Shown in pieces: positions 1 to 17,850 of a stretch of DNA of 28,125 bases (the first letter of the stretch is position 1; every line of letters starts with the position of its first letter). The stretch covers positions 1 through 28,125 of the IMG/VR virus record IMGVR_UViG_650716055_000001. One strand, given 5' to 3'. The notes under the pieces are model-generated. The model saw only the letters and a program-made list of their open reading frames with translations. It did not search any database and was not told the origin of the DNA. Both the position numbers and the translations under genes were made by a program. This DNA comes from a virus.

Positions 1-978
1 TTATAATAATTTTTTAATATCTTTCAACATACTATTGGCTCTATCATTCGAATGGCTATAAAACAGGGTAGTATCTATCGACTTATGGCCCAATACCTCT
101 TTTACCACATCCAAAGGCACACCCTTATTCAGCAAATCCACAGCCCTACCGTGCCTCAGAGAATGCAAAACTATTCGTTTATTCTGCGGAATCTTACCTT
201 CTTTTTTCAATTCTTTAATAACATTTGAAAATACATGCGTTATGGTATTCCTATTTATCTGCTTACCATCAACAGTTTGGAATATTGGGGCATCGGGGCT
301 TTTATCAATATTATACTGAATATAATACCGCAATGCTTCCAAAGTATCGTTAGAACATACCACAATCCTTTCCTCCTTACCTTTCGTATTCCTTATTCTA
401 AAAGTGCCTTCCTCAAAATCACAATCCTTATACCTAATGTTCAGGAGCTCCGATACTCTACATCCAGTATCCCACAACATCCTAATAATTAATGAATTTC
501 TTATATTCGTTCTGCTATTGCTGGATAATATCTTTTGAAGAATTTCATTTAATATACCTCCATCAACAGCATCATAATGTTTTACTTCATACCTCCTAAA
601 TCTCTTTCTCTCACTGCTTTCTTCTGCAAATTTTCTAAAATTTTGCAACCTTGCCAACCTATAAAATACCTTTAACAATTGGAAATATTTATCCTGGGTA
701 TTCCTAGATAATTTTCTCTCCCGTTCCAAATAATTAAAAAACCTTACAAAATCTGAATTTACCAACTTATCAGGCTCTTTGTTTAATCGATTATACACAA
801 AATCTAAAAATATAGTTATTCGCAGTATATCATTGCGAATTGTAGAAGGCTTAATGCCATCAAACTCCCGCTCTTCTCTAAACCTCTCAACCCACTGCTT
901 TATTCTCGGGTCATCCCTCACATTTTCTTTTCTCTGTGGTTTGACCAATATTAAATTTTCAATACTCTTCATTCCCAT
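1..978 (-). CDS. int: Tyrosine recombinase / integrase (XerC/D-like)
   Basis: Catalytic motifs TGCRVSEL (R), TKGK (K), HSLRH (HxxR), LGH and TTLFY (Y); N-terminal SAM-like core-binding region. Confidence 0.96.
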   Translation of the reverse strand: MGMKSIENLILVKPQRKENVRDDPRIKQWVERFREEREFDGIKPSTIRNDILRITIFLDFVYNRLNKEPDKLVNSDFVRFFNYLERERKLSRNTQDKYFQLLKVFYRLARLQNFRKFAEESSERKRFRRYEVKHYDAVDGGILNEILQKILSSNSRTNIRNSLIIRMLWDTGCRVSELLNIRYKDCDFEEGTFRIRNTKGKEERIVVCSNDTLEALRYYIQYNIDKSPDAPIFQTVDGKQINRNTITHVFSNVIKELKKEGKIPQNKRIVLHSLRHGRAVDLLNKGVPLDVVKEVLGHKSIDTTLFYSHSNDRANSMLKDIKKLL

Positions 979-1222
979 CTACCAACTGATAATTTATTAA
1001 TAACCCAACTGCTTTCCCATGTTTTTCTATAATATTTTTCTCCTCATTTGACAAAGTAATTACTCTCTTATATTTCTTTTTAGATTCCAATGCTTTTCTA
1101 AGACGAGATATATCTAAGTTTATAGTATCTGTGTTTTCGAGTTTATGAATCAAATACCTTAATTTTCGACTATCTATATTTTTACAGAGATAAAAAATTT
1201 TAGCATGTTTCCGCCTGTCCAT
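959..1222 (-). CDS. MJ0366-like (DUF2540) ribbon-helix-helix-like small protein; possible recombination directionality factor
   Basis: FYLCKNIDSRKLRYLIHKLEN...KKYKRVITLSNEE closely matches my recollection of M. jannaschii MJ0366 (FYLYKNIDGRKLRYLLHKLEN...KKYKRSITLTEEE); overlaps the int start. Confidence 0.85.
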   Translation of the reverse strand: MDRRKHAKIFYLCKNIDSRKLRYLIHKLENTDTINLDISRLRKALESKKKYKRVITLSNEEKNIIEKHGKAVGLLINYQLVDGNEEY

Positions 1223-1244
1223 TTTTTACACCCTTATCTATTTA

Positions 1245-3458
1245 TTATGATAATACCTTATACTTACCAGGTCTTACCTCCATTACCTCTCCAAAATTAC
1301 TTAATTTCTCCAAATACCTTTCTAACTGTTCCTCTGAAATGCCCTTTTTAGACAGTAATTCTTCCAAATCATAGAAACTAACAGGGGTATCCTTAGTCTG
1401 TTCTAAATGTTTAATCGCATCCTTAATTAAATCTAATTTCTCAACCTCAGACTTTGGAACGCCCCCTATTTTTGCGAAATCCAATAAACCAGTTTCGGGG
1501 TCTTTTGCTATTTCGTTGTAGCACTCCATTATGATATTTACTGCTTCTCTTGCATCTTCACCATCTGCAATCTCTTTAAGTTTAGCCTTTGCTATCGCTT
1601 CAGTTAGACGAGCAGCACTTTCCAACTGTCTGGGGGTGATACTTTCTCCTGCATCCTTAGTTTTTTGTCTTAATTCTACATAGAAGTCTTCTATTACATT
1701 ATCCGCCTCATCTGAAAGAAGCACTATTTTATTTGTGGCATATTGGATATACTTATAAATAAAATCAGGAGTTAATTTTATCCGTTTTCCATCTATCTCA
1801 ATTGTTTCCCCGTTAATATCCTCTTTTTTTACCAACTGCTTATTTAATCTTAAAATACGCTTTGCTATTTTTTTGTCTGAGTATCTATTTGCATTATCTC
1901 TTAAAGGAAATATTAAATCAAATCTCGATAGAAGTGCTTTTCCAATTTGGATTTGCTCCCATACTGTAAGTTCGGGGTCATATCTTCCACGCTTTGGATT
2001 GCATGCTGCCAAAATCGAGGTGTTGGTTGGTAGGACTGTTGATATGGATGCTTTATTAATGCTAAGTTTCATGTGTTCCATAGCTTCTAAAAGATAGTGT
2101 TCAATACTGCTCTTTGTTGTAAATTCATCAATACATGCGGTTCCGCCGTGTGCTTTTGGAATAACTCCTGGTTTTATAACCCATGTATCGTCTCCAATTT
2201 CGGTTTTAACTCGTTCTACTGTTGCGGTTAATCCAACTCCTGACGCTGTATTTACTGACGCATAAGTATTGCCTGGCATTTTTGCTATCTTTTGAAGCAT
2301 TATCGACTTGCCCACCCCAGGGTCTGTAATTAATAATATGTGTATTACATTTCGTTTTATTAATTTCTCTGTTCCTCTTATTTGTTGTAAAAATATTGCT
2401 TTTTTTATGGTTTCGTGCCCCTCTATCTCAGGGAACAGGTTTTTTGATAGAATGTCTATAACATTAGGTATCTTTGAAAGCTGTTTAATATCTTCCTCAT
2501 CTTCCTTTGAAATAGTGGCTTTCTTTGTGTTTTCAATTGGAATGATATTTATCGCTTTGATTATGATGTCATATACTGCCAGTTTCTTTGAACTTGCCAC
2601 TTTTATAGGAATTCCTATTACTTTTACCCTACCGCTGTATATTCCCTTTGCATTCTCATTGATTATCGTCATGTATCTTGGAGGGTCGTTTGGATTTTTC
2701 ATTTGTTCGATAGGCTGCTGGACTTTTAACTCCTGAAAATCCACATATTTTGAACCCTTCTCATCTAAATATGCCTTTTCTTTACATTTACAAGGAAGTT
2801 CTCTAACAGGATTTAAAGGGTCAATAGGTATAGTAAAGGTATTTCCACAGTTTGGACAGTAAAACTTCCCTTCTATTATTGCCGTTTTTAGTTTCGATGC
2901 CAGTGCTATTATTCCTTCAAATTCAACTAATTTATTTAGATTATTGCTCCTAATGTCCTCAATAGTTGTTGATGTGGGTAGTTTTTTAATCGTAACTACG
3001 GCGTCAGTGTCTTCATTGTTAAATGAATAATATGCTTCTTTGTATGCTTCCGATAAGAGAGTTAATGTTTTCTCAGGATTTTCAATTAACATATCTACAA
3101 CAGCTCCTAATCCTGAGCTTATTAGGTTAGAAGTATCTATCTCAACTAATTCCGAATCTGTTCTTATGTCTTCACTATGAGCAGTTTTAAAGAATTGAAT
3201 TAATTGAGATTTGTAAGTTAGTAATGCATAGTCATCTTCTTCCTTCTCTTCTTTCGGAGTTTCTAAGAGAGTGATAATTTTTTTATTATTGATGATTTCC
3301 TCCGAAATAACTCCTCTTTTAATTAGCCTGTCTTTTGTTGTAGATATTCCTCCTTTTGAATACCCTGCATCACATAATAATCTATATATATTATCCCATT
3401 CCATAGAGTGGTTTTGTGATTTTTTTAGTAAGTCGATAATTTCGTCAGCAATAGACAT
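1245..3458 (-). CDS. mcm: MCM replicative helicase with N-terminal wHTH-like extension
   Basis: Zn finger CPNC...CKC, Walker A TDPGVGKS, Walker B CIDEF, sensor AACNP, Arg finger LLSRFDL, ITPRQLE, C-terminal wHTH; about 65 extra N-terminal residues. Confidence 0.97.
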   Translation of the reverse strand: MSIADEIIDLLKKSQNHSMEWDNIYRLLCDAGYSKGGISTTKDRLIKRGVISEEIINNKKIITLLETPKEEKEEDDYALLTYKSQLIQFFKTAHSEDIRTDSELVEIDTSNLISSGLGAVVDMLIENPEKTLTLLSEAYKEAYYSFNNEDTDAVVTIKKLPTSTTIEDIRSNNLNKLVEFEGIIALASKLKTAIIEGKFYCPNCGNTFTIPIDPLNPVRELPCKCKEKAYLDEKGSKYVDFQELKVQQPIEQMKNPNDPPRYMTIINENAKGIYSGRVKVIGIPIKVASSKKLAVYDIIIKAINIIPIENTKKATISKEDEEDIKQLSKIPNVIDILSKNLFPEIEGHETIKKAIFLQQIRGTEKLIKRNVIHILLITDPGVGKSIMLQKIAKMPGNTYASVNTASGVGLTATVERVKTEIGDDTWVIKPGVIPKAHGGTACIDEFTTKSSIEHYLLEAMEHMKLSINKASISTVLPTNTSILAACNPKRGRYDPELTVWEQIQIGKALLSRFDLIFPLRDNANRYSDKKIAKRILRLNKQLVKKEDINGETIEIDGKRIKLTPDFIYKYIQYATNKIVLLSDEADNVIEDFYVELRQKTKDAGESITPRQLESAARLTEAIAKAKLKEIADGEDAREAVNIIMECYNEIAKDPETGLLDFAKIGGVPKSEVEKLDLIKDAIKHLEQTKDTPVSFYDLEELLSKKGISEEQLERYLEKLSNFGEVMEVRPGKYKVLS

Positions 3459-3776: not shown

Positions 3777-3862
3777 TATTTCAATATATACACTTAAAAC
3801 AAATATATACATAAGTTTAAAATGACAGTTGTTTTTTTATGTCATTAAGTGAGGTGAATATA

Positions 3863-4189
3863 ATGAAGATGATAAAATTATTAGCAAAAAAACACATTAA
3901 AGAAATATTAGAATTACTTAATAAAAATGAAGAAATGTATTTTGGGCAGATTTTAAGGATTATAAATATAAATCAAAGTAATCTAAGTAAATTATTAAAT
4001 GAGCTTGTAAATGCGGGACTGGTAGAAAAGTGGGAAGAAAAAGAAGGATATAAACTTCCAAAATCATACTATAAAATAACTAAAAAAGGGCGACAGGCGT
4101 TAATATTCTATAAATTAGATGATAAATTTAAGGATATTCCAGATAACCAGTTTTTAAAAATTCAAAATATTGTTGCAGAATATGATTAA
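3863..4189 (+). CDS. Winged-helix (ArsR/HxlR/MarR-like) transcription regulator, probable provirus repressor
   Basis: EILELL...MYFGQI...INQSNLSKLLNELVNAGLVEK...YYKITKKG wHTH pattern; divergent from the mcm-int operon; GAGGTGA SD before ATG 3863. Confidence 0.85.
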   Translation: MKMIKLLAKKHIKEILELLNKNEEMYFGQILRIININQSNLSKLLNELVNAGLVEKWEEKEGYKLPKSYYKITKKGRQALIFYKLDDKFKDIPDNQFLKIQNIVAEYD

Positions 4190-4276: not shown

Positions 4277-4621
4277 CTTAAAAGTATGATAATAAGGGTG
4301 ATAATACTTGATAACAAAAAAACATAACGCGGTAAAACAATGTTATTTTTCGAAATAACCGATTACTTTAAATTAAAACCCTGATAATAGCACATAATAA
4401 AACCTATTATCATACTTTTAAGCATAATCCATTGAGATTGCAATTTATTAATTTGAAAACAAGCAATTATAAAGGATATAAGTATGAAAATGAGCGTAAT
4501 TAACGTCCGTTTTCATACTTTTAAGCCTTATTTACTCAATATTTTAGAAATAATAACCAAATGGCAAATATTGGCTTTTTCGTTATCATTTGTTATCACC
4601 CTTATTATCATACTTTTAAGC
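4277..4621. repeat. AT-rich repeat cluster: perfect 28-bp inverted repeat (4277-4304 / 4593-4620) plus iteron-like TCATACTTTTAAGC at 4410, 4513 and 4608; candidate replication origin
   Basis: CTTAAAAGTATGATAATAAGGGTGATAA is the exact reverse complement of TTATCACCCTTATTATCATACTTTTAAG; direct copies are spaced 103 and 95 bp. Confidence 0.85.
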
Positions 4622-4756
4622 CCTATTTATCCTTTATTTATTATTATATTATTATATTATTCTTATTTTCATATTATATTTTTCTTGGGTATATACTATA
4701 ATAATAGTATATAGTAAAAATAAATATAGAATTTAAAATCTATAAAGGTGATGTCT

Positions 4757-5364
4757 ATGTTGAAAAAATCCATGGTTGTTATGGCAGTTATTGGAATTAT
4801 AACTGCATGCATGTGCGGTTGCATGTCTTCCCCTGAACAATCCAGCATTGTAAAATTTCACCCTGATATCCAACCATATCATACTACTCATTATACTACA
4901 TTAACAAATAAAATATATATTAACATGAATGACCCATTAATAAAGGAAAAAAACAATTATATGACCAAGGTGGTGGGGTTGTAGGAAATGGTGTCCCCCA
5001 AGATTTAAACAACAATGTTAAACAATTTTTAGAGGAAGAAGGGACTAAAATATTTAATGATAAATATGTAATGTCATATTTTTATAACTTTAATATTACT
5101 GACCACGGTAATTTTGTCATGACCATCTATTCAAAAAGAGTTAAAAAAGATGATATGAAGGCATTTGTAATTATGGCTAAGGATATATATCATAAATATA
5201 ATATGTATTGCCCCAATAATAACATGCGTATAGTTATAGATTTTGTAGATATAGATAGTGGTTGGAAATATGGTAATGTGGCTTATAAGTCATATCTTGC
5301 CAATGGATTAGGCACTAGATACCAATTAGATGATGGAACAACAATTGGCGAGGAATATAACTAA
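4757..5364 (+). pseudogene. Predicted lipoprotein (~200 aa) split by a frameshift at the A7 run 4947-4953 (ORFs 4748-4984 and 5071-5364)
   Basis: Signal peptide with Cys motif (MLKKSMVVMAVIGIITACMCGCMSS); the second frame is open from 4933 to 5364; one extra A gives ...IKEKKQLYDQGGGVVGNG... Confidence 0.7.
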
Positions 5365-5508: not shown

Positions 5509-6683
5509 TTAAATCTTAGTTTGATTAAATAGATTTCTTAGCGTTTTTTTATCTTGTATATAATCCAAGGTATCATTTTGTTTGATATATTTTTGGGATG
5601 TTAAAAACTCGTCTCTGCTGGATTTAAACTCATGAAACTTTAATATTGCATGAAGTATTGTTTTTTATTTTTATCATGCTCAGCTTCTTGATAATTTAAT
5701 AGTGGGTTTTTTATAGACTTTTCATTAGTTTCTAAGATAATATCATCAACCCATTTAGGGTTGGATATTATTTCATTACTAAGGGAGGTAACATCCAAAA
5801 GCCTTTTTCTAAATAATTTGAGTTCCTGACCTATTGGCTTTGGATTAACGGTTTTTTGGATGGGACCCCCAACACCAACATATGAGGATAATATATCGCC
5901 TACAACAAACTCTCCATAATGAACTCCCGATACATTGTATAAGGAAGATAGACTTCGTTTTACATCTAACATAACTATTCCAATATTTTTATCATATAAT
6001 GAGTTCCATATTGTATCGTAACTAACCCTATAGTTTCTAAAAGATTTATATAATATCCCAATTAAATTTAAAGTGTCATTATCTTCACACGAAATTACAT
6101 ACTCCAATATATCATTTAATAAGTTTTCATCACATCCTGGGTCAATAACTGGCATTATTGTTTTATTAGGATTACTCTCCACATATTTTTTATGAACCTG
6201 TTTAAATTTTTCAATAGGTAAGTTTAGCCAGGGGATAGTGATTATATTTAAATTATACTCTTCAATGTCCTTTTGTAATATGCATTGTAATCGTATAAAT
6301 TTTTCGAGAATACTATCCGAAGTATGTAAATAATTCAAAGCAGAGGATGTTGGTTGTAGTAATACATATCTCAAATTAAAATATTGCATTGTAACTAAAT
6401 GTGAAATCACAACTTTTTTAATGTCATTAAATTTTTTATTTTTGGAGATAAAATCTTTAATATTTCGTGTTCTTTTATCGGTAAATTTTAAAATAACCCC
6501 TCCAATTTCAGCATTAATTTCTACTGGAGTAGGTATTGTTTTTTTTGCATTCATTTCTGAGTTAGTTATTGCTCTTATTGGCGTTTCAATAGATACTGAA
6601 CTACTAATCTTTATTTTAGCCACTCTTGTTCTATATGTATATTTTGGTGAATCGTCAATATTTAATGGTTTTACTACTATCAT
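5509..6683 (-). CDS. Divergent tRNA/DNA-guanine transglycosylase-like (TGT/DpdA-like TIM barrel) protein, ~391 aa if the frameshift at T6 5661-5666 is corrected (ORF track stops at 5640)
   Basis: N-terminal RTRVAKIKISSSVSIETPIRA resembles TGT ARxGxLxTxxGxIETP; VHYG...VGDILS resembles HxLG...GxDxFD; the alternative frame continues ILHAILKFHEFKSSRDEF...NQTKI to a stop at 5509-5511. Confidence 0.65.
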
Positions 6684-7231
6684 GCCCTACCACACCCCCA
6701 AATTATGTCTTTATATTTATTTTTAATTTTCGATTTTTCTTTATATTTTTCATAGTTTTGATACACATATCTAAGAATACCATCAGTTCCTAACTGGTCC
6801 CATCCCTTCCTTTTTCTCTTTATCTCTTTTTTTAATTTATCAGGAAGTTTTTCAAAAGTCTCTTTTATTTCATTTTTACCCTTATCCGTAAGTTCAAACT
6901 TTTCTGATGTTGAGTTTTTTCTTCCAATTCTTTGTATATATCCAAACCATTCAAGTTGATTAAGAATCTCTGCAATATCAAAACTATATGGTCCGTAATG
7001 ATGTGGAATAAAATTTGGGTTTTGAATTTCAAAATCATTGTAATCTTTTAAGACTTCCATATATAATAGGAAAATTTCTTTAAATAGCAATGTCCTACCA
7101 TATATTGGCTTGTTTTGAGCATATAAAATTATCAAAACCAAATCTTTGGTGGTAAGAATTGTTTTTCCTTTCATTGATTCTATTAATTCTTTAAGTTTTT
7201 CTAATTTATTATACTTCAAAATCTCACTCAT
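6680..7231 (-). CDS. Panacea/SocA (DUF4065)-like winged-helix antitoxin-type protein
   Basis: GRTLLFKEIFLL...FIPHHYGPYSFDI...LNQLEWFGYI matches the GRTxLQKxxFL...FxPxxYGPxS family signature; overlaps both neighbours. Confidence 0.7.
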   Translation of the reverse strand: MSEILKYNKLEKLKELIESMKGKTILTTKDLVLIILYAQNKPIYGRTLLFKEIFLLYMEVLKDYNDFEIQNPNFIPHHYGPYSFDIAEILNQLEWFGYIQRIGRKNSTSEKFELTDKGKNEIKETFEKLPDKLKKEIKRKRKGWDQLGTDGILRYVYQNYEKYKEKSKIKNKYKDIIWGCGRA

Positions 7232-7745
7232 AGTATCCCCCTATTTTTTCTATGGTAAAAGGGATATTTTCTCCGTTTTTATAATTTCGATAGGTTACCA
7301 ATGCATAATTTTGGTTTTTCACATTAAACAAAATGTGCATTTCAAAATATACCTTTTTTGATTTTTTGGAAATACCTCTTTTCATTCTATTGTACATCGA
7401 ATAAGGCACAACAATAGAATAAACGCCATTTAACAGTTCATCGACACCGATACCATACTTGGCAAATAATATTGCAAAATGCCTTAATCTTTTATCAGGA
7501 ATGTGATTAAGTGCATCTTCTGTTTGGATTTTTAAAAATTTTTTATTTTCTTTACTATTTGCTATCAATTCATAACATCTACCGCAATAGCCACAATCCA
7601 CAAGCAAGGGTGCTGAAACATTGTAATCGTATGAAAAAGACATATCGATTAGTTTATTCAATGGTATCTTAATTTTTTTTGATTTTGCTGAAAGCATTGA
7701 TATATTAGGGCTGGGATTACCACAATAAACACACCGCATGAACAC
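7224..7745 (-). CDS. Zn-ribbon protein with a possible BrnT/RelE-like C-terminal domain (putative toxin)
   Basis: CVYC...CGYCGRC; DKRLRHF...AKYGIGVDELL weakly resembles BrnT KxxxNxxKHGISFEE; start may be ATG 7739. Confidence 0.4.
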   Translation of the reverse strand: MFMRCVYCGNPSPNISMLSAKSKKIKIPLNKLIDMSFSYDYNVSAPLLVDCGYCGRCYELIANSKENKKFLKIQTEDALNHIPDKRLRHFAILFAKYGIGVDELLNGVYSIVVPYSMYNRMKRGISKKSKKVYFEMHILFNVKNQNYALVTYRNYKNGENIPFTIEKIGGYYE

Positions 7746-8055
7746 CGACCTATTTCAATAATTATAAACTTTTAGTTTTTTAAAGAGTCTCTTCCTTTGT
7801 ATTTAAAATAATTTTATAACTTCACTTATGTTTGTATTATCCTTTTTTTAATAGTTTAACAGTTCCTATTACATTATAAAACTATGCTTGTATTAAAAAG
7901 TATCTATTTTTAGTTAGTTTTGGGATGTCAATGTATATTTTATAACTTATACTATTGACTTTTCTAAATGGTATATTAAAAAAATTAAATAGAAAGTTAT
8001 AAATAATAGTTTAACAATATTACTATTTGCAAAAAAGCAAAGAGTTTAAAATATA

Positions 8056-8077
8056 AAAATAGTTTAAAAAAATACAA
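8056..8077 (+). promoter_or_regulatory. Putative operator/promoter box, copy 2 (AAAATAGTTTAAAAAAATACAA)
   Basis: 21/22 identical to 3755-3776; ends 20 bp before the first early gene. Confidence 0.5.
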
Positions 8078-8097
8078 CTAACCCACGAGGTGAAAGC

Positions 8098-8472
8098 ATG
8101 ACAGAAAAATATTGGAAATACACAAGACCAGATGGAACAGTTGGATACCATAAAGGTAAGAAGTGGAGAGGAATCTCCCAGCAAGAAGTAACTAAAGAGG
8201 AATACGCAGACCTTCTAAGAGTAATAAGAGGGTTAAGTAAGTTGGCAGCCACCCACCCAGAGATAGAATATCTAAGAATTGAACTGGCAAAAGAGCTTCT
8301 AAGTGAAAAATGGAGTAGATTTGAAAAGTTTTGTAGGAGGGTATTTTATGGGGATGTAAAAGTAACAAAAGAGGAATGGGATTGGGCTTGGGAAGTTAGA
8401 GAACAGTTGCATTTCGGTCCATATACTTGCGGATTAATCGCAAAAGAATTACAAAAAGAGGTGAAAACATGA
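8098..8472 (+). CDS. Hypothetical early viral protein
   Basis: GAGGTGA SD; ATGA overlap with the next gene; internal VTKEE and AKEL repeats. Confidence 0.8.
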   Translation: MTEKYWKYTRPDGTVGYHKGKKWRGISQQEVTKEEYADLLRVIRGLSKLAATHPEIEYLRIELAKELLSEKWSRFEKFCRRVFYGDVKVTKEEWDWAWEVREQLHFGPYTCGLIAKELQKEVKT

Positions 8473-15666: not shown

Positions 15667-17850
15667 ATGGTAAATATGGAAATAATTATTTCAGCAGTCG
15701 ATAAGGCATCAGCTGTATTGGAAAAGGTTCAAAGGAAGATGGATGTAATTAAAAACAAAACAGCAAGAATAGCAGAAACATTTAACAGAGTAGGTAAAGG
15801 TTTAGCTGTTGCTGGTGCTGGAATGACTGCATTTGCCACTCCTTTTGTTGCAGGAATGGCATCAGCAATAAATAAAGGAATAGAATTTGAACAGCAAATG
15901 AAAACAGTTCAGGCAGTTATGGGGGCATCACAGCAAGACTTTACAAAACTATCACAACTTGCGATGCATTATGGTGCAACAACAGCCTATACTGCATCAG
16001 AAGTAGCAGAAGCCATGAGGAATATGGCAGCAGCAGGAATGAAAACAAAACAGATATACGCATCGCTCGGTAGTGTTTTAACTCTTGCAACGGCAACACA
16101 GTCTGATTTAAACCTATCATCTGAAATTATTATTTCAACACTTGCACAGTTCAATATGAAGGCATCTCAAAGTGCGAGGATAATTGATGTATTTTCACAG
16201 GCTGTTGCTAATTCCCCTGCAAGACTTGGTGATTTACAATATTCTTTAAAATATGTCGGAGCTCTGGCTAATTCAATGGGATATTCATTAGAGCAAACAA
16301 CTGCTGCATTAATGATGCTATATAAAGCTGGAAAAAAAGGAGAAGAAGCAGGGACTGCATTAAGGGAAGTATTGTCACGCTTAGTTAATACGGGGGTGCA
16401 AAATAAATTAAAAGCATTAGGTATTAATGTCCTCGATTCAAATGGAAAATTAAAAGGCATGGGGACTATATTAGATGAAATAAAAAAGAAAGGACTATCT
16501 TCGGCACAAATATTATCGATATTTGGAACGGAAGCAGGGACTGCAATAAATATTATGCTAACACAGGGGGGAGATGCCTATAAAAAATATGTAAAAGTAT
16601 TGGATGATTCAAAAGGAAAAGCAGAAAAGACAGCAGATGAAATGAAAAACACAGTTCAATATAAAATACAGGCATTAAAATCAGCAATTGAAGGGATAAA
16701 ACTATCTATTTTTAAGGACAATAAAGGACAGATTAAAAAGTTTTTAGATGAGCTCATTAAAGCCATGCCTGCTATAAAAAAGTTTGTTGTCTCTATTTCA
16801 AAAGGGATGGCTACCGTTGGGAAAGTGATAGTTAAAGCCATTCTTCCATTGTTAAAAATATTTAACAATCTTCCTGCACCAGTTAAAAAAGCCATTGGAA
16901 TTTTTGTTGGATTGGTAGCTGCAATAGCTGCAATAGTTGGCCCTATTCTGTTGGTGGTTGGCGGGTTTGCAATGGCTATCTCTTCAATCAGTGAAGTAGT
17001 TGGTGCAATAGGTGGATTAAGTGCAGCAATTGGTGCAGTTTCAGGGGTAATATCATCGGTAATTACCGTAATAGGGGGCATTGTGTTAGCAATAAATCCT
17101 GTTATTCTGATAATCCTTGCAGTTGCTGTTGCAGTGGCAGCTTTATATTTAGCGTGGAAAAATAACTGGTTTGGGATTAGGGATACAATAAATGCAGTTG
17201 TTAAAAAAATAAAGGGGATATTAAGTAAATTAGCAGGAGCTTTAAAATGGGTAATTACTGAGATTAAAAAGCATACAAAGGATATTAAAAAAGCATTATT
17301 TACCGCATTGCTCGGACCATTTGCACCACTCAAAACAGCATGGGATAACAATCTCTTTGGAATTAGAGATAAGTTAAAAAAAGTATTTAATGAGATGATT
17401 AGTTACTTAAAATCATTACCTCGTAGATTTTATCAGGCTGGTGTAGGGATGATTAATTCACTTAAAAATGGAATTGAAAGCAAAATAAATGAAATTAAGC
17501 AAAAAATATTGGATTTACTTCATTGGATTGATAACCACCTACCCCACAGCCCTGCAAAAGAGGGACCGTTAAGCAGATTGGATAAAGTAGGTCCTGGTTT
17601 TATAGATACAATTGCAGAAGGGATAAATAAACATAAATCTAAAATCCAAAATGTAGTTGGGGGCATAACTACCACTATGGCAATTAATACACGATTAGGC
17701 AGAGCTCCTACAACGAGCAATGTACTCAACTATGGTGGAGACACGCAAACCAACTATAATGTGGCAATTAATGTTGTTGGTAAATCTTATGATGAGCAAC
17801 AATTAGCTAATCATTTGAATAAATTATTAAAAAAACAAATTTATAGGTGA
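15667..17850 (+). CDS. Tail tape measure protein (TP901/PhageMin_Tail-like)
   Basis: FEQQMKTVQAV...YTASEVAEAM...GEEAGTALR motifs; A/G-rich hydrophobic middle; W-spaced repeats; PHSPAKEGPL near the C-terminus. Confidence 0.95.
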   Translation: MVNMEIIISAVDKASAVLEKVQRKMDVIKNKTARIAETFNRVGKGLAVAGAGMTAFATPFVAGMASAINKGIEFEQQMKTVQAVMGASQQDFTKLSQLAMHYGATTAYTASEVAEAMRNMAAAGMKTKQIYASLGSVLTLATATQSDLNLSSEIIISTLAQFNMKASQSARIIDVFSQAVANSPARLGDLQYSLKYVGALANSMGYSLEQTTAALMMLYKAGKKGEEAGTALREVLSRLVNTGVQNKLKALGINVLDSNGKLKGMGTILDEIKKKGLSSAQILSIFGTEAGTAINIMLTQGGDAYKKYVKVLDDSKGKAEKTADEMKNTVQYKIQALKSAIEGIKLSIFKDNKGQIKKFLDELIKAMPAIKKFVVSISKGMATVGKVIVKAILPLLKIFNNLPAPVKKAIGIFVGLVAAIAAIVGPILLVVGGFAMAISSISEVVGAIGGLSAAIGAVSGVISSVITVIGGIVLAINPVILIILAVAVAVAALYLAWKNNWFGIRDTINAVVKKIKGILSKLAGALKWVITEIKKHTKDIKKALFTALLGPFAPLKTAWDNNLFGIRDKLKKVFNEMISYLKSLPRRFYQAGVGMINSLKNGIESKINEIKQKILDLLHWIDNHLPHSPAKEGPLSRLDKVGPGFIDTIAEGINKHKSKIQNVVGGITTTMAINTRLGRAPTTSNVLNYGGDTQTNYNVAINVVGKSYDEQQLANHLNKLLKKQIYR

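Follow-up and report, generated by a model that had tools for sequence, protein, structure and literature searches.

Three overlapping genes on the minus strand of a methanogen provirus, termed g1, g2 and g3, belong to a cassette that is also found in other archaea. The cassette is tentatively interpreted as a conserved, mobile archaeal conflict module of the toxin-antitoxin or abortive-defence type, present here as provirus cargo; a probability of about 0.42 is given to this reading, which is drawn from comparison of sequences, predicted structures and gene neighbourhoods. The gene order and the gene overlaps are constant across distant archaea, and the cassette is found on integrated elements and in the company of defence genes. 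The original prediction was that the combination has no name, and this agrees with its absence from Pfam, NCBIfam, PHROGs and PADLOC 2023. The triplet is likewise not described in the literature found by searches on YwgA, on TGT-like proteins in defence, and on transglycosylase with archaea and antitoxin.

To our knowledge, the number of antiviral and toxin-antitoxin systems defined in archaea is small. Should it prove functional, the cassette would be a further example of the TGT fold at work in immunity, where DpdA, Cap10 and the proposed TIM-B came before it. The promiscuous antitoxin logic of the Panacea type would then also hold for a sister family of winged-helix (wHTH) proteins.

Gene layout in the provirus

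The window, i.e., the whole stretch of DNA analyzed, comprises 28,125 nucleotides of IMG/VR record IMGVR_UViG_650716055_000001. Open reading frames show g1 at 7224-7745, g2 at 6680-7231 and the main frame of g3 at 5640-6683, all on the minus strand. The g1/g2 overlap is 8 nt (7224-7231) and the g2/g3 overlap is 4 nt (6680-6683), which bears out the three coupled genes first proposed. The location of the cassette is also as described at the outset. On one side are an ArsR-like wHTH gene (3839-4189, plus strand) and the integrase and MCM genes (1-3458, minus strand), and on the other is a plus-strand operon that starts at 8098. The provirus has a tape-measure gene at 15667-17850. The GC content is 0.26-0.28 at the cassette and 0.32-0.37 in the structural module.

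The divergent intergenic region at 7746-8097 is AT-rich and is a candidate promoter/operator. It has TATA-like boxes upstream of g1 and carries three copies of TTAAACTATT, out of four in the window against an expected 0.54.

The frameshift in g3

The g3 frame terminates with a stop codon at 5642-5640 and encodes 347 amino acids, whereas g3 homologues have 380-420. A single frame ending at 5509 had been assumed originally, and the frameshift was missed; position 5509 lies in the -1 frame. The conserved C-terminal block that is absent from the main frame (motif SKVHE...S..EF) is found in this -1 frame, minus strand, at 5509-5664, as 51 codons without a stop. This piece aligns to positions 334-386 of the family profile with an E-value of 2e-14 and, by column counts, bears the E, S, E and Y residues that hardly vary within the family. 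The frameshift site, at 5657-5666 on the minus strand, consists of a run of six A residues followed by caa^ta. DNA alignment with two homologous loci shows that the window has one base fewer, the base being absent at caa^ta (∼5658/5657), directly after the A6 run at 5666-5661.

The window cassette is probably crippled, with a g3 product devoid of the conserved C-terminal helices, provided that the deletion is real and not an artefact of assembly. There is a substantial chance, if short of an even one, that the shift is not a real inactivation: either assembly introduced an error in A-rich DNA, or -1 slippage on A6, in translation or in transcription, yields full-length g3. The persistence of a 51-codon segment without a stop, and with its profile match, in DNA of 27% GC is in keeping with this, as is the position of the shift at or beside the A6 run, where slippage would give back the family length; with the base present, g3 would have 398 amino acids. 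Arguing for inactivation are the homologues, which need no shift, and the site itself, which in the zero frame does not conform to the standard X XXY YYZ heptamer. In addition, a separately truncated g3 in a viral contig (L060) shows that the gene decays. With its frameshifted g3, the window copy is unsuited as a reference for the cassette.

Distribution and neighbourhoods

All loci examined have the triplet in the same order. With more than 10 independent loci, this order is not a product of chance. The cassette is spread over Methanococcales, Archaeoglobus, Thermoproteota, Nitrososphaerota and DPANN-type lineages. The g2-like and g3-like genes are adjacent, and mostly overlap by 4 nt, in the window and in L002/3, L004, L008, L010/11, L043, L044/45, L046/47, L053/54, L055/56, L057 and L059, with HMM E-values from 1e-56 to 1e-126. 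A g1-type protein is encoded upstream of g2-g3 in nine of these loci and also in L005.

Defence genes are found next to the cassette, an association that refers to about 10 sampled loci, reached by look-ups of exact proteins, and is not a statistical survey. In the Archaeoglobus locus L008 the triplet lies between hsdM and hsdS, within a type I restriction-modification (R-M) operon. One locus has MmeI-like and DpnII R-M genes together with an integrase as neighbours, another adjoins BrxL/PglZ (BREX), and yet another adjoins PLD-SNF2 and a type IIG methylase. Several copies are on integrated elements, and some loci have no viral genes in view. A distant version of the cassette (G006) consists of a YwgA-UPF0175 protein, then a distant g3-like protein and then a bona fide Panacea protein.

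In whole genomes of the family and the phylum (23 and 40 species genomes, respectively), g3 was present in the window's own genome only. A scan of viral contigs with P0002, an intact homologue 61% identical to the window g3, gave no match, and a comparison of g3 with BFVD viral structures gave a best TM-score of ≤0.42, with none convincing.

g3, a predicted TGT fold

The g3 family has 86 representative clusters, and its named members are archaeal. The fold was taken from P0002 and not from the window g3, whose single-sequence AF2 model is unusable (pLDDT 41.7). The AF2 model of P0002, built with a 72-sequence alignment, has a pLDDT of 94.7 and a pTM of 0.93, and its best Foldseek matches are all TGTs. 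In an exhaustive structure search (VIA), ArcTGT (1iq8) ranked first with a Z-score of 21.9 over 308 amino acids at 4.0 Å, followed by bacterial TGT (3unt, Z 20.7), QTRT2 (6fv5, Z 19.7), Cap10 (9ntn, Z 16.3) and DpdA (7ui4, Z 14.4). The top five matches are all of the TGT superfamily and stand above all other TIM barrels (Z ≤13.4). Judged by the predicted model, g3 belongs structurally to the TGT superfamily, and the fold first suggested for it holds.

At the sequence level g3 is highly diverged, and neither of two family alignments has a run of 7-10 columns that is conserved. The window g3 has no Pfam match, PF01702 included, and its identity to TGTs is 8-12%; PF01702 is matched by two of 72 family members, with a best E-value of 6e-5. 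When the family was aligned with ArcTGT by hhalign, the N-terminal R...TP motif alone aligned (E = 0.017), and this gives no residue map; nor does hmmsearch against an ArcTGT alignment. The Cys cluster of the zinc site is absent from the window g3 and from most of the family. It is kept as C.C..C in four of 87 family members and in the L059 protein, with the His of KVHE 30-40 amino acids onward; therefore the zinc site is ancestral and its loss took place in the branch of the window.

The family has an invariant pocket of R37, D181, R243, H255 and D263, and the invariant residues follow barrel strands. The aspartates of the Zymomonas mobilis TGT are D102 in the DSGG motif, D156 and the nucleophile D280. 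Their counterparts in g3, assigned by motif and strand order only in comparison with the host ArcTGT, are Q110 (45 of 72 members), T/S149 and S/A266, and the invariant D263 aligns, by motif comparison only, with the first Asp of G.D.FD. With the zinc Cys residues lost and Gln, Thr/Ser and Ser/Ala apparently in place of the aspartates, g3 does not look like an enzyme that still exchanges guanine. Perhaps it could be catalytically TGT-like after all, as the mapping of the aspartates consists of motif and strand order only.

Several known proteins share this fold. ArcTGT, bacterial TGT, QTRT1 and the non-catalytic QTRT2 resemble g3 over about 310 residues, with an N-terminal hairpin that has the R...TP motif and a C-terminal hairpin followed by helices. 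However, the TGTs are housekeeping proteins, whereas g3 is found in a mobile three-gene cassette. Cap10 of type IV CBASS (10.1101/2025.04.06.647259; PDB 9ntn) is, like g3, a TGT-family protein without a zinc site. It is encoded in an immune operon and acts on a partner protein and not on tRNA (10.1101/2025.04.06.647259). It differs from g3 in its lower Z-score (16.3) and in its partners: the cassette has no QueC-like Cap9 and no CD-NTase, and the partners of g3 are wHTH and zinc-ribbon proteins.

TIM-B, or P4 'beta' (PF14350), which includes Gop-beta-cII, is a TGT-related TIM barrel proposed to be a regulator of effectors, among them BECR RNases, and PanA is sometimes coupled to it (10.64898/2026.10.19.760177). 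It resembles the cassette in that a TGT-related TIM barrel is part of a conflict operon, but the partners of g3 are nearly constant and the named g3 proteins are archaeal. In hhalign, g3 gave an E-value of 0.073 with P4 beta, and PF14350 matched none of 72 members; one of 72 matched the PADLOC 'beta' model at 0.004, and the Atlas TM-score to the PF14350 cluster is 0.40. DpdA (PMC10164549; PDB 7ui4) is similar to g3 in that it belongs to the TGT superfamily, is found on genomic islands and phages and is linked to restriction. It differs in being the weakest TGT-superfamily match. The TGT of the BREX-related 'BRC' systems has a different context.

g2, a YwgA-type winged-helix protein

The g2 protein has 183 amino acids and is the invariable partner of g3. 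It has 49 homologues, some of which are named YwgA in their sources. The original prediction of a Panacea-like protein was right as to resemblance and wrong if membership in PF13274 is meant. Seven of 42 family members match PF13274, with a best E-value of 0.0022 and all under the gathering cut-off, and a protein of the branch with DUF4258 fusions (P0045) matches it at 0.003 across the g2-like region. In contrast, the window g2 has no PF13274 match at E ≤1, and the whole genome has none; hhalign of g2 with one true Panacea protein gave an E-value of 0.076. PADLOC matches are to the tail of a type I specificity-subunit model (8e-11), to PDC-M19A (1e-10) and to DarG (1e-5). The NCBIfam DarG model is matched at 2.4e-5, the resemblance being to the C-terminal region of DarG. 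In the Atlas, fold neighbours of g2 are fused to HsdS, CopG, UPF0175 or DUF488. By these comparisons g2 is a YwgA-type wHTH protein with a distant resemblance to Panacea, and not a member of PF13274. Sequence searches of the PDB with g1, g2 and g3, both single and profile, gave only matches at chance level or to zinc ribbons or MarR wings.

The closeness of g2 to its partner is also found in PanA-PanT systems (Panacea/DUF4065, SocA; PMC8832971), where the gene of a small wHTH-type protein lies only a few bases from that of its partner. The 4-nt g2/g3 overlap, here and in most loci, is well inside the distance of <100 nt used to define Panacea-type loci. PanA-PanT loci at times have a third gene, and they are mobile and found in phages and archaea. 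Their helix-and-GP(Y/V)S type signature is shared with g2, some g2 relatives match PF13274 weakly, and in G006 a true Panacea gene is found beside a distant g3-like gene. The partner of PanA is variable, however, while that of g2 is constant and TGT-like in fold, and g2 is placed in a separate 'YwgA' group.

g1, a zinc-ribbon protein

The probable start of g1 is the ATG at 7739 (171 amino acids), as in databases; the GTG at 7745 gives 173. The protein has a split zinc ribbon (C..C, about 40 amino acids, then C..C..Y) and a C-terminal alpha/beta domain of about 100 amino acids. In an alignment of 10 loci, with BLAST links between loci, C51, C54 and Y58 are nearly invariant in the family, and the C-terminal domain has few conserved polar residues. 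For g1, the model in the Atlas cannot be relied on (pLDDT 0.50, pTM 0.43) and has no meaningful structural neighbours.

A RelE/BrnT-like fold proposed for g1 is so far not supported by sequence or profile searches. No toxin homology was detected in Pfam, NCBIfam, PHROGs or PADLOC, and 10 family members scanned at E ≤10 gave only weak zinc-finger matches in Pfam and the PDB. Comparison with the DUF4258 domains of a sister branch by hhalign gave an E-value of 0.61. The wider idea of a toxin at the first position fared better, at least for that branch. There, DUF4258 and a zinc ribbon are fused to g2 in place of g1, and g3 then follows. DUF4258 belongs to the BECR RNase toxin domains, and its fusion to MqsA has precedents (PMC11980606; 10.64898/2026.08.28.747851). 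The sister branch is similar to MqsRA and the DUF4258-MqsA fusions (PMC11980606) in that a BECR toxin is joined to a zinc-ribbon-plus-HTH antitoxin, and the cassette is similar to DarTG in the DarG-like C-terminal part of g2 (E = 1e-5). Unlike DarTG and MqsRA, the cassette has no macrodomain and no DarT, g2 is of the YwgA wHTH and not the XRE HTH type, and a gene of the TGT fold always follows.

Proposed role of the cassette

As a conflict module, the cassette would have g2 as its hub, a protein that would bind the effector and restrain it, and that probably represses the operon as well. A neutralizing role for g2 is suggested because of the DarG C-terminal and HsdS-tail matches, the CopG and UPF0175 fusions, the weak PF13274 matches and the Panacea protein of G006. 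The effector is most likely the protein at position 1, which would be g1 here and the BECR-type RNase domain in the sister branch, since the fusions of DUF4258, zinc ribbon and g2 precede g3. The g3 protein may be a regulatory or sensing enzyme, one that modifies or binds a ligand with a nucleobase, or else a partner protein or nucleic acid. Its action would be analogous to that of Cap10 and the proposed TIM-B, and it would set the release of the effector on infection. That g3 is broken here and truncated in the viral contig while g1 and g2 are intact argues against a lethal g1 that g3 has to hold in check.

A more specific proposal, which we consider unlikely, is that a hitherto unrecognized TGT branch of archaea has come to act in an antiviral, toxin-antitoxin-like cassette, either as its effector or as the enzyme that controls it, and that base transfer or base recognition gates effector release. 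The target might be a partner protein, tRNA or invading DNA, and the effector, of zinc-ribbon or BECR type, would be held by the Panacea-like protein. The backup effector PrrC docks on EcoprrI, and the Panacea-like domain could similarly dock the cassette on type I restriction complexes as a backup.

The g2-g3 pair is tighter and more constant than the rest of the cassette, and this also fits g3 as the toxin. It would excise or exchange a base in tRNA or DNA and be neutralized by g2, with g1 as an accessory or sensor. This is doubtful, if more likely than the two other roles discussed below. The pair is invariable and translationally coupled in all loci, the distant version in G006 included. 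In addition, g3 is the largest and best-conserved protein of the cassette and has an enzyme-like invariant pocket. Orphaned toxins often decay, and g3 is the decaying gene, by frameshift here and by truncation in L060. Against it, g3 has by motif not retained the aspartates that serve TGTs as nucleophile and in substrate binding, and the sister-branch cassette already has a recognized toxin domain in DUF4258. We know of no toxin in the TGT superfamily; the roles of DpdA, Cap10 and TIM-B are modification or regulation. Panacea-type antitoxins, for their part, mostly adjoin their own toxin (PMC8832971), which speaks for g3 as the toxin.

The self-modification alternative raised at the outset has become weaker and is now thought improbable. 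In it, the cassette would be a DpdA-like base-modification system in which g3 puts a 7-deazaguanine or other base into DNA or tRNA and so marks self or protects the provirus, with g1 and g2 for targeting or regulation, perhaps together with neighbouring R-M genes. The TGT fold of g3 is consistent with this, as are the copy within a type I R-M operon and the g2-like domains fused to HsdS. The host genome carries QueC and ArcTGT, and therefore the host should make preQ0. However, PADLOC, which models defence systems, gave no meaningful match for g3 or 72 relatives, and no QueC/D/E, DpdB or DpdC genes were called in the 12 neighbourhoods. Furthermore, g3 is nearer to the tRNA-type TGTs (Z 20-22) than to DpdA (Z 14.4), and the guanine-binding and nucleophile aspartates are replaced, by motif.

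It is similarly improbable that the cassette is no conflict system and serves mobile elements in regulation or maintenance, e.g., in lysogeny control, with defence neighbours that stem from shared islands: g2 is a wHTH protein, TTAAACTATT boxes are repeated in the divergent promoter region opposite the cassette and several copies are on integrated elements, but one copy is inside a type I R-M operon, some loci lack viral genes in view, one branch has a toxin domain and g2 resembles antitoxin-type proteins.

The conflict-module interpretation is directly testable, since Methanococcus maripaludis has an intact cassette at locus L043, beside an nSTAND NTPase in a provirus, and is a host amenable to genetics.

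Organization and distribution of the cassette

The genes g1 (7745..7224, 173 aa), g2 (7231..6680, 183 aa) and g3 (6683..5640, 347 aa) are read from the minus strand and encode a zinc-ribbon protein, a YwgA-type winged-helix protein and a diverged relative of tRNA-guanine transglycosylase (TGT), respectively. The ORF listing shows overlaps of 8 nt between g1 and g2 and 4 nt between g2 and g3, the same lengths as in the original prediction of three overlapping genes. The cassette is a conserved, translationally coupled and mobile triplet that occurs alongside defence genes; the largest of its proteins is a divergent member of the TGT superfamily. What was first noticed is real but incomplete. 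The interest of the cassette lies mainly in its family.

The g1-g2-g3 order recurs on short metagenomic contigs and on longer ones, and thus the three genes do co-occur elsewhere; on the longer contigs (L008 to L059), the identity of g2 and g3 is borne out by family HMMs at every locus. In L002/3, a g2 of 85% identity precedes a g3 of 61%; the corresponding values in L004 are 53% and 47%, and L005 has a g1 of 58% with the beginning of g2 behind it. In an Archaeoglobus sp. MAG (L008, 932-8449), the cassette lies within a type I R-M operon, all on one strand, hsdR-hsdM-[g1'-g2-g3]-hsdS; HEPN/MNT pairs and an EVE gene are close by. Other copies adjoin an MmeI-like enzyme, a DpnII R-M system and an integrase (L010/11), an nSTAND-TPR NTPase in a provirus of another M. 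maripaludis strain (L043), an integrase (L046/47), BrxL and PglZ (L053/54), or a PLD-SNF2 helicase and a type IIG methylase (L055/56). A HicA toxin gene is near L044/45, SMC_N/AAA_23 and Metallophos genes are near L057, and L059 is surrounded by IS elements. Que, DpdB and DpdC genes were found in none of the cassette loci examined.

No description of the cassette was found in the literature and PADLOC has no model for g3, in keeping with the view that the combination is not a named system. The preprint on TIM-B (10.64898/2026.10.19.760177) sets out a related idea for a different protein family: g3 does not match PF14350, and its hhalign comparison with P4 beta reaches E 0.073.

The TGT-like protein

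Window g3 has no informative match in sequence libraries. An exhaustive HMMER search found relatives in 86 representative clusters, 45 of them with E below 1e-10. The named members are all archaeal (Archaeoglobus, M. maripaludis, Zestosphaera, Thermosphaera, Nitrososphaerota and Nezhaarchaeales), and so are the closest Atlas clusters. The fold was modelled on P0002, an intact homologue 61% identical to window g3 whose upstream neighbour shows 85% identity to window g2, with a 72-sequence alignment (pLDDT 94.7, pTM 0.93). All best Foldseek matches of the model are TGTs, and re-alignment to these gives Z 21-22 across ∼310 residues (model residues 1-394). A second structure search, independent of Foldseek and covering 48,161 chains, gives Z 21.9 for ArcTGT (1iq8), 20.7 for bacterial TGT (3unt), 19.7 for the non-catalytic QTRT2 (6fv5), 16.3 for Cap10 (9ntn) and 14.4 for DpdA (7ui4). 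Generic TIM barrels reach Z <= 13.4, below all five TGT-superfamily chains.

Homology beyond a shared fold is supported by weak PF01702 matches in two of 72 family members and by the TGT zinc motif C.C..C, which is kept in four members and the L059 protein, with the His of the KVHE motif 30-40 residues later. The TGT-like fold predicted for the third gene holds. The branch of the window g3 has lost the three zinc-motif cysteines.

P35, R37 and D263 are invariant in the g3 family, and R20, K47, P151, D181, R243, H255 and a C-terminal E, S, E and Y are nearly so; most of these residues come after barrel strands in the P0002 model. Profile methods give no significant alignment of g3 with ArcTGT, and residues were mapped to the host's own ArcTGT by strand order and motifs. 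On this mapping, g3 appears to have Gln, Thr/Ser and Ser/Ala at the DSGG-, substrate- and nucleophile-aspartate positions of TGT, respectively, and D263 may align with the first Asp of G.D.FD. Elsewhere in the window's own genome (G000:C1:1815-1955), a 576-aa open frame contains another, weak match to PF01702 (E 4.5e-5, profile positions 237-283).

A frameshift in g3

Relatives of g3 are all ∼380-420 aa long, and of the 347 residues in window g3 their alignments span 1-342. The conserved C-terminal block of the family (motif SKVHE...S..EF) is found downstream in the -1 frame, which is open from 5664 to a stop at 5511-5509; when the whole genome is searched with the profile, this piece is a hit of its own (profile positions 334-386, E 2e-14). 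This explains why the original prediction had the cassette end at 5509: the conserved block does end there, but the g3 frame closes at 5640 and the frameshift was overlooked. Aligned with two homologous loci at the DNA level, the window lacks a single base at caa^ta (∼5658/5657), directly after an A6 run. The product lacks E356, S360, E363 and Y379, residues kept in 66-71 of the 72 aligned members; for E363 and Y379, window g3 is the sole exception. The 51 shifted codons are still free of stops, in DNA of 27% GC, and the shift is therefore either recent or due to an assembly error; a slippage site is less likely. The window copy of the cassette is probably defective.

A second, independent decayed g3 is present on an IMG/VR viral contig (L060, 5746-7113). 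Here g2 is intact and g3 breaks off at half length, near position 223 of the 388 in the profile; the rest was not found in any frame.

The second and first positions

There are 49 close relatives of g2, several of which are called 'YwgA' by their sources. The central part of the protein is a MarR-like winged helix. The protein matches the C-terminal 120 positions of the PADLOC type I specificity-subunit model (8e-11), PDC-M19A (1e-10) and DarG models (∼1e-5). In the Atlas, the fold occurs fused to HsdS, CopG, UPF0175 and DUF488. The second gene had been predicted to be a Panacea-like antitoxin. Window g2 itself does not match PF13274, but sub-cut-off matches occur in seven of 42 family members, and a neighbouring Atlas cluster has the domain in 21% of its members.

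A distant version of the cassette in another Methanococcales genome (L052, G006:C4, 5889-8376) adjoins a resolvase gene. Its order is a YwgA-like-UPF0175 protein (217 aa; hhalign E 1.7e-15), a 369-aa protein with distant g3 likeness (E 3e-4, 234 columns) and lastly a true Panacea protein of 144 aa, which scores 66.5 bits against PF13274. 'Panacea-like' is thus a fair account of the resemblance, but not a family assignment.

When ten position-1 proteins are aligned, they show a zinc ribbon split by a variable insert into C..C and C..C..Y parts, and an alpha/beta domain of ∼100 aa at the C-terminus. The Archaeoglobus protein (93 aa) has the C-terminal domain only, without the zinc ribbon. The closest g1 homologue is from a hydrothermal-vent metagenome. 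The toxin-like character predicted for g1 is unproven: no search made gave a match to a toxin family, comparison with DUF4258 by hhalign yields nothing significant, and the one structural model to hand is unreliable. In a sister branch of this g2 family, however (L059, 6001-8097; P0036, P0038, P0042, P0043, P0047), g2 is extended at its N-terminus by DUF4258 and zinc-ribbon domains and is followed by a g3-family member, which in L059 retains the TGT zinc motif C.C..C...H. DUF4258 domains are RNase toxins of the BECR fold, and their fusions with MqsA (zinc ribbon plus HTH) have been recorded (PMC11980606; 10.64898/2026.08.28.747851).

Proposed functional roles

A toxin-antitoxin or defence function of some type is quite probable for the cassette. 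The g2 protein may be a neutralising and regulatory hub, given its likeness to Panacea and to the C-terminal region of DarG and the fusions of its fold to antitoxin domains and HsdS. Position 1 is a varying slot, filled by a zinc ribbon with domain X, by X alone or by DUF4258-zinc ribbon fused to g2, and it carries a recognised toxin once. In conflict systems, such a pattern points to an effector, and the position-1 protein would have this role.

Perhaps g3 is the regulatory or sensing enzyme of the cassette, a reading given a probability of roughly 0.4. It is ranked over g3 itself being the toxin because the TGT-superfamily proteins characterised or proposed in immunity, DpdA, Cap10 (10.1101/2025.04.06.647259) and TIM-B, all modify or regulate; a toxic g3 is accordingly rather unlikely. 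The HsdS fusions, together with the one locus where the cassette is inserted between hsdM and hsdS (L008), suggest that the cassette may be tied to type I restriction in the manner of PrrC.

Provirus surroundings

The cassette lies in a provirus. A tyrosine integrase (1-978) and an MCM helicase (1245-3458) are encoded on the minus strand, an ArsR-like wHTH protein (3839-4189) and an operon from 8098 on the plus strand; the window also has a KaiC/RecA-like ATPase and a tail tape-measure protein (15667-17850). No tRNA genes were found in the window. The GC content of the cassette and flanks is 26-28%, versus 32-37% in the structural genes.

The divergent intergenic stretch that separates g1 from the plus-strand operon (7746-8097) has three exact minus-strand copies of TTAAACTATT, at 7850, 8005 and 8058; the whole window has four, with 0.54 expected. 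The copies are candidate operators, to which either the provirus repressor or g2 might bind. An AT-rich segment (4484-4984), placed between the wHTH gene and a 97-aa ORF without a family (5071-5364), has several short ORFs that overlap one another and occupy both strands; their peptides are hydrophobic and of low complexity. The segment may be the origin region mentioned in the original prediction, or an attachment-related region.
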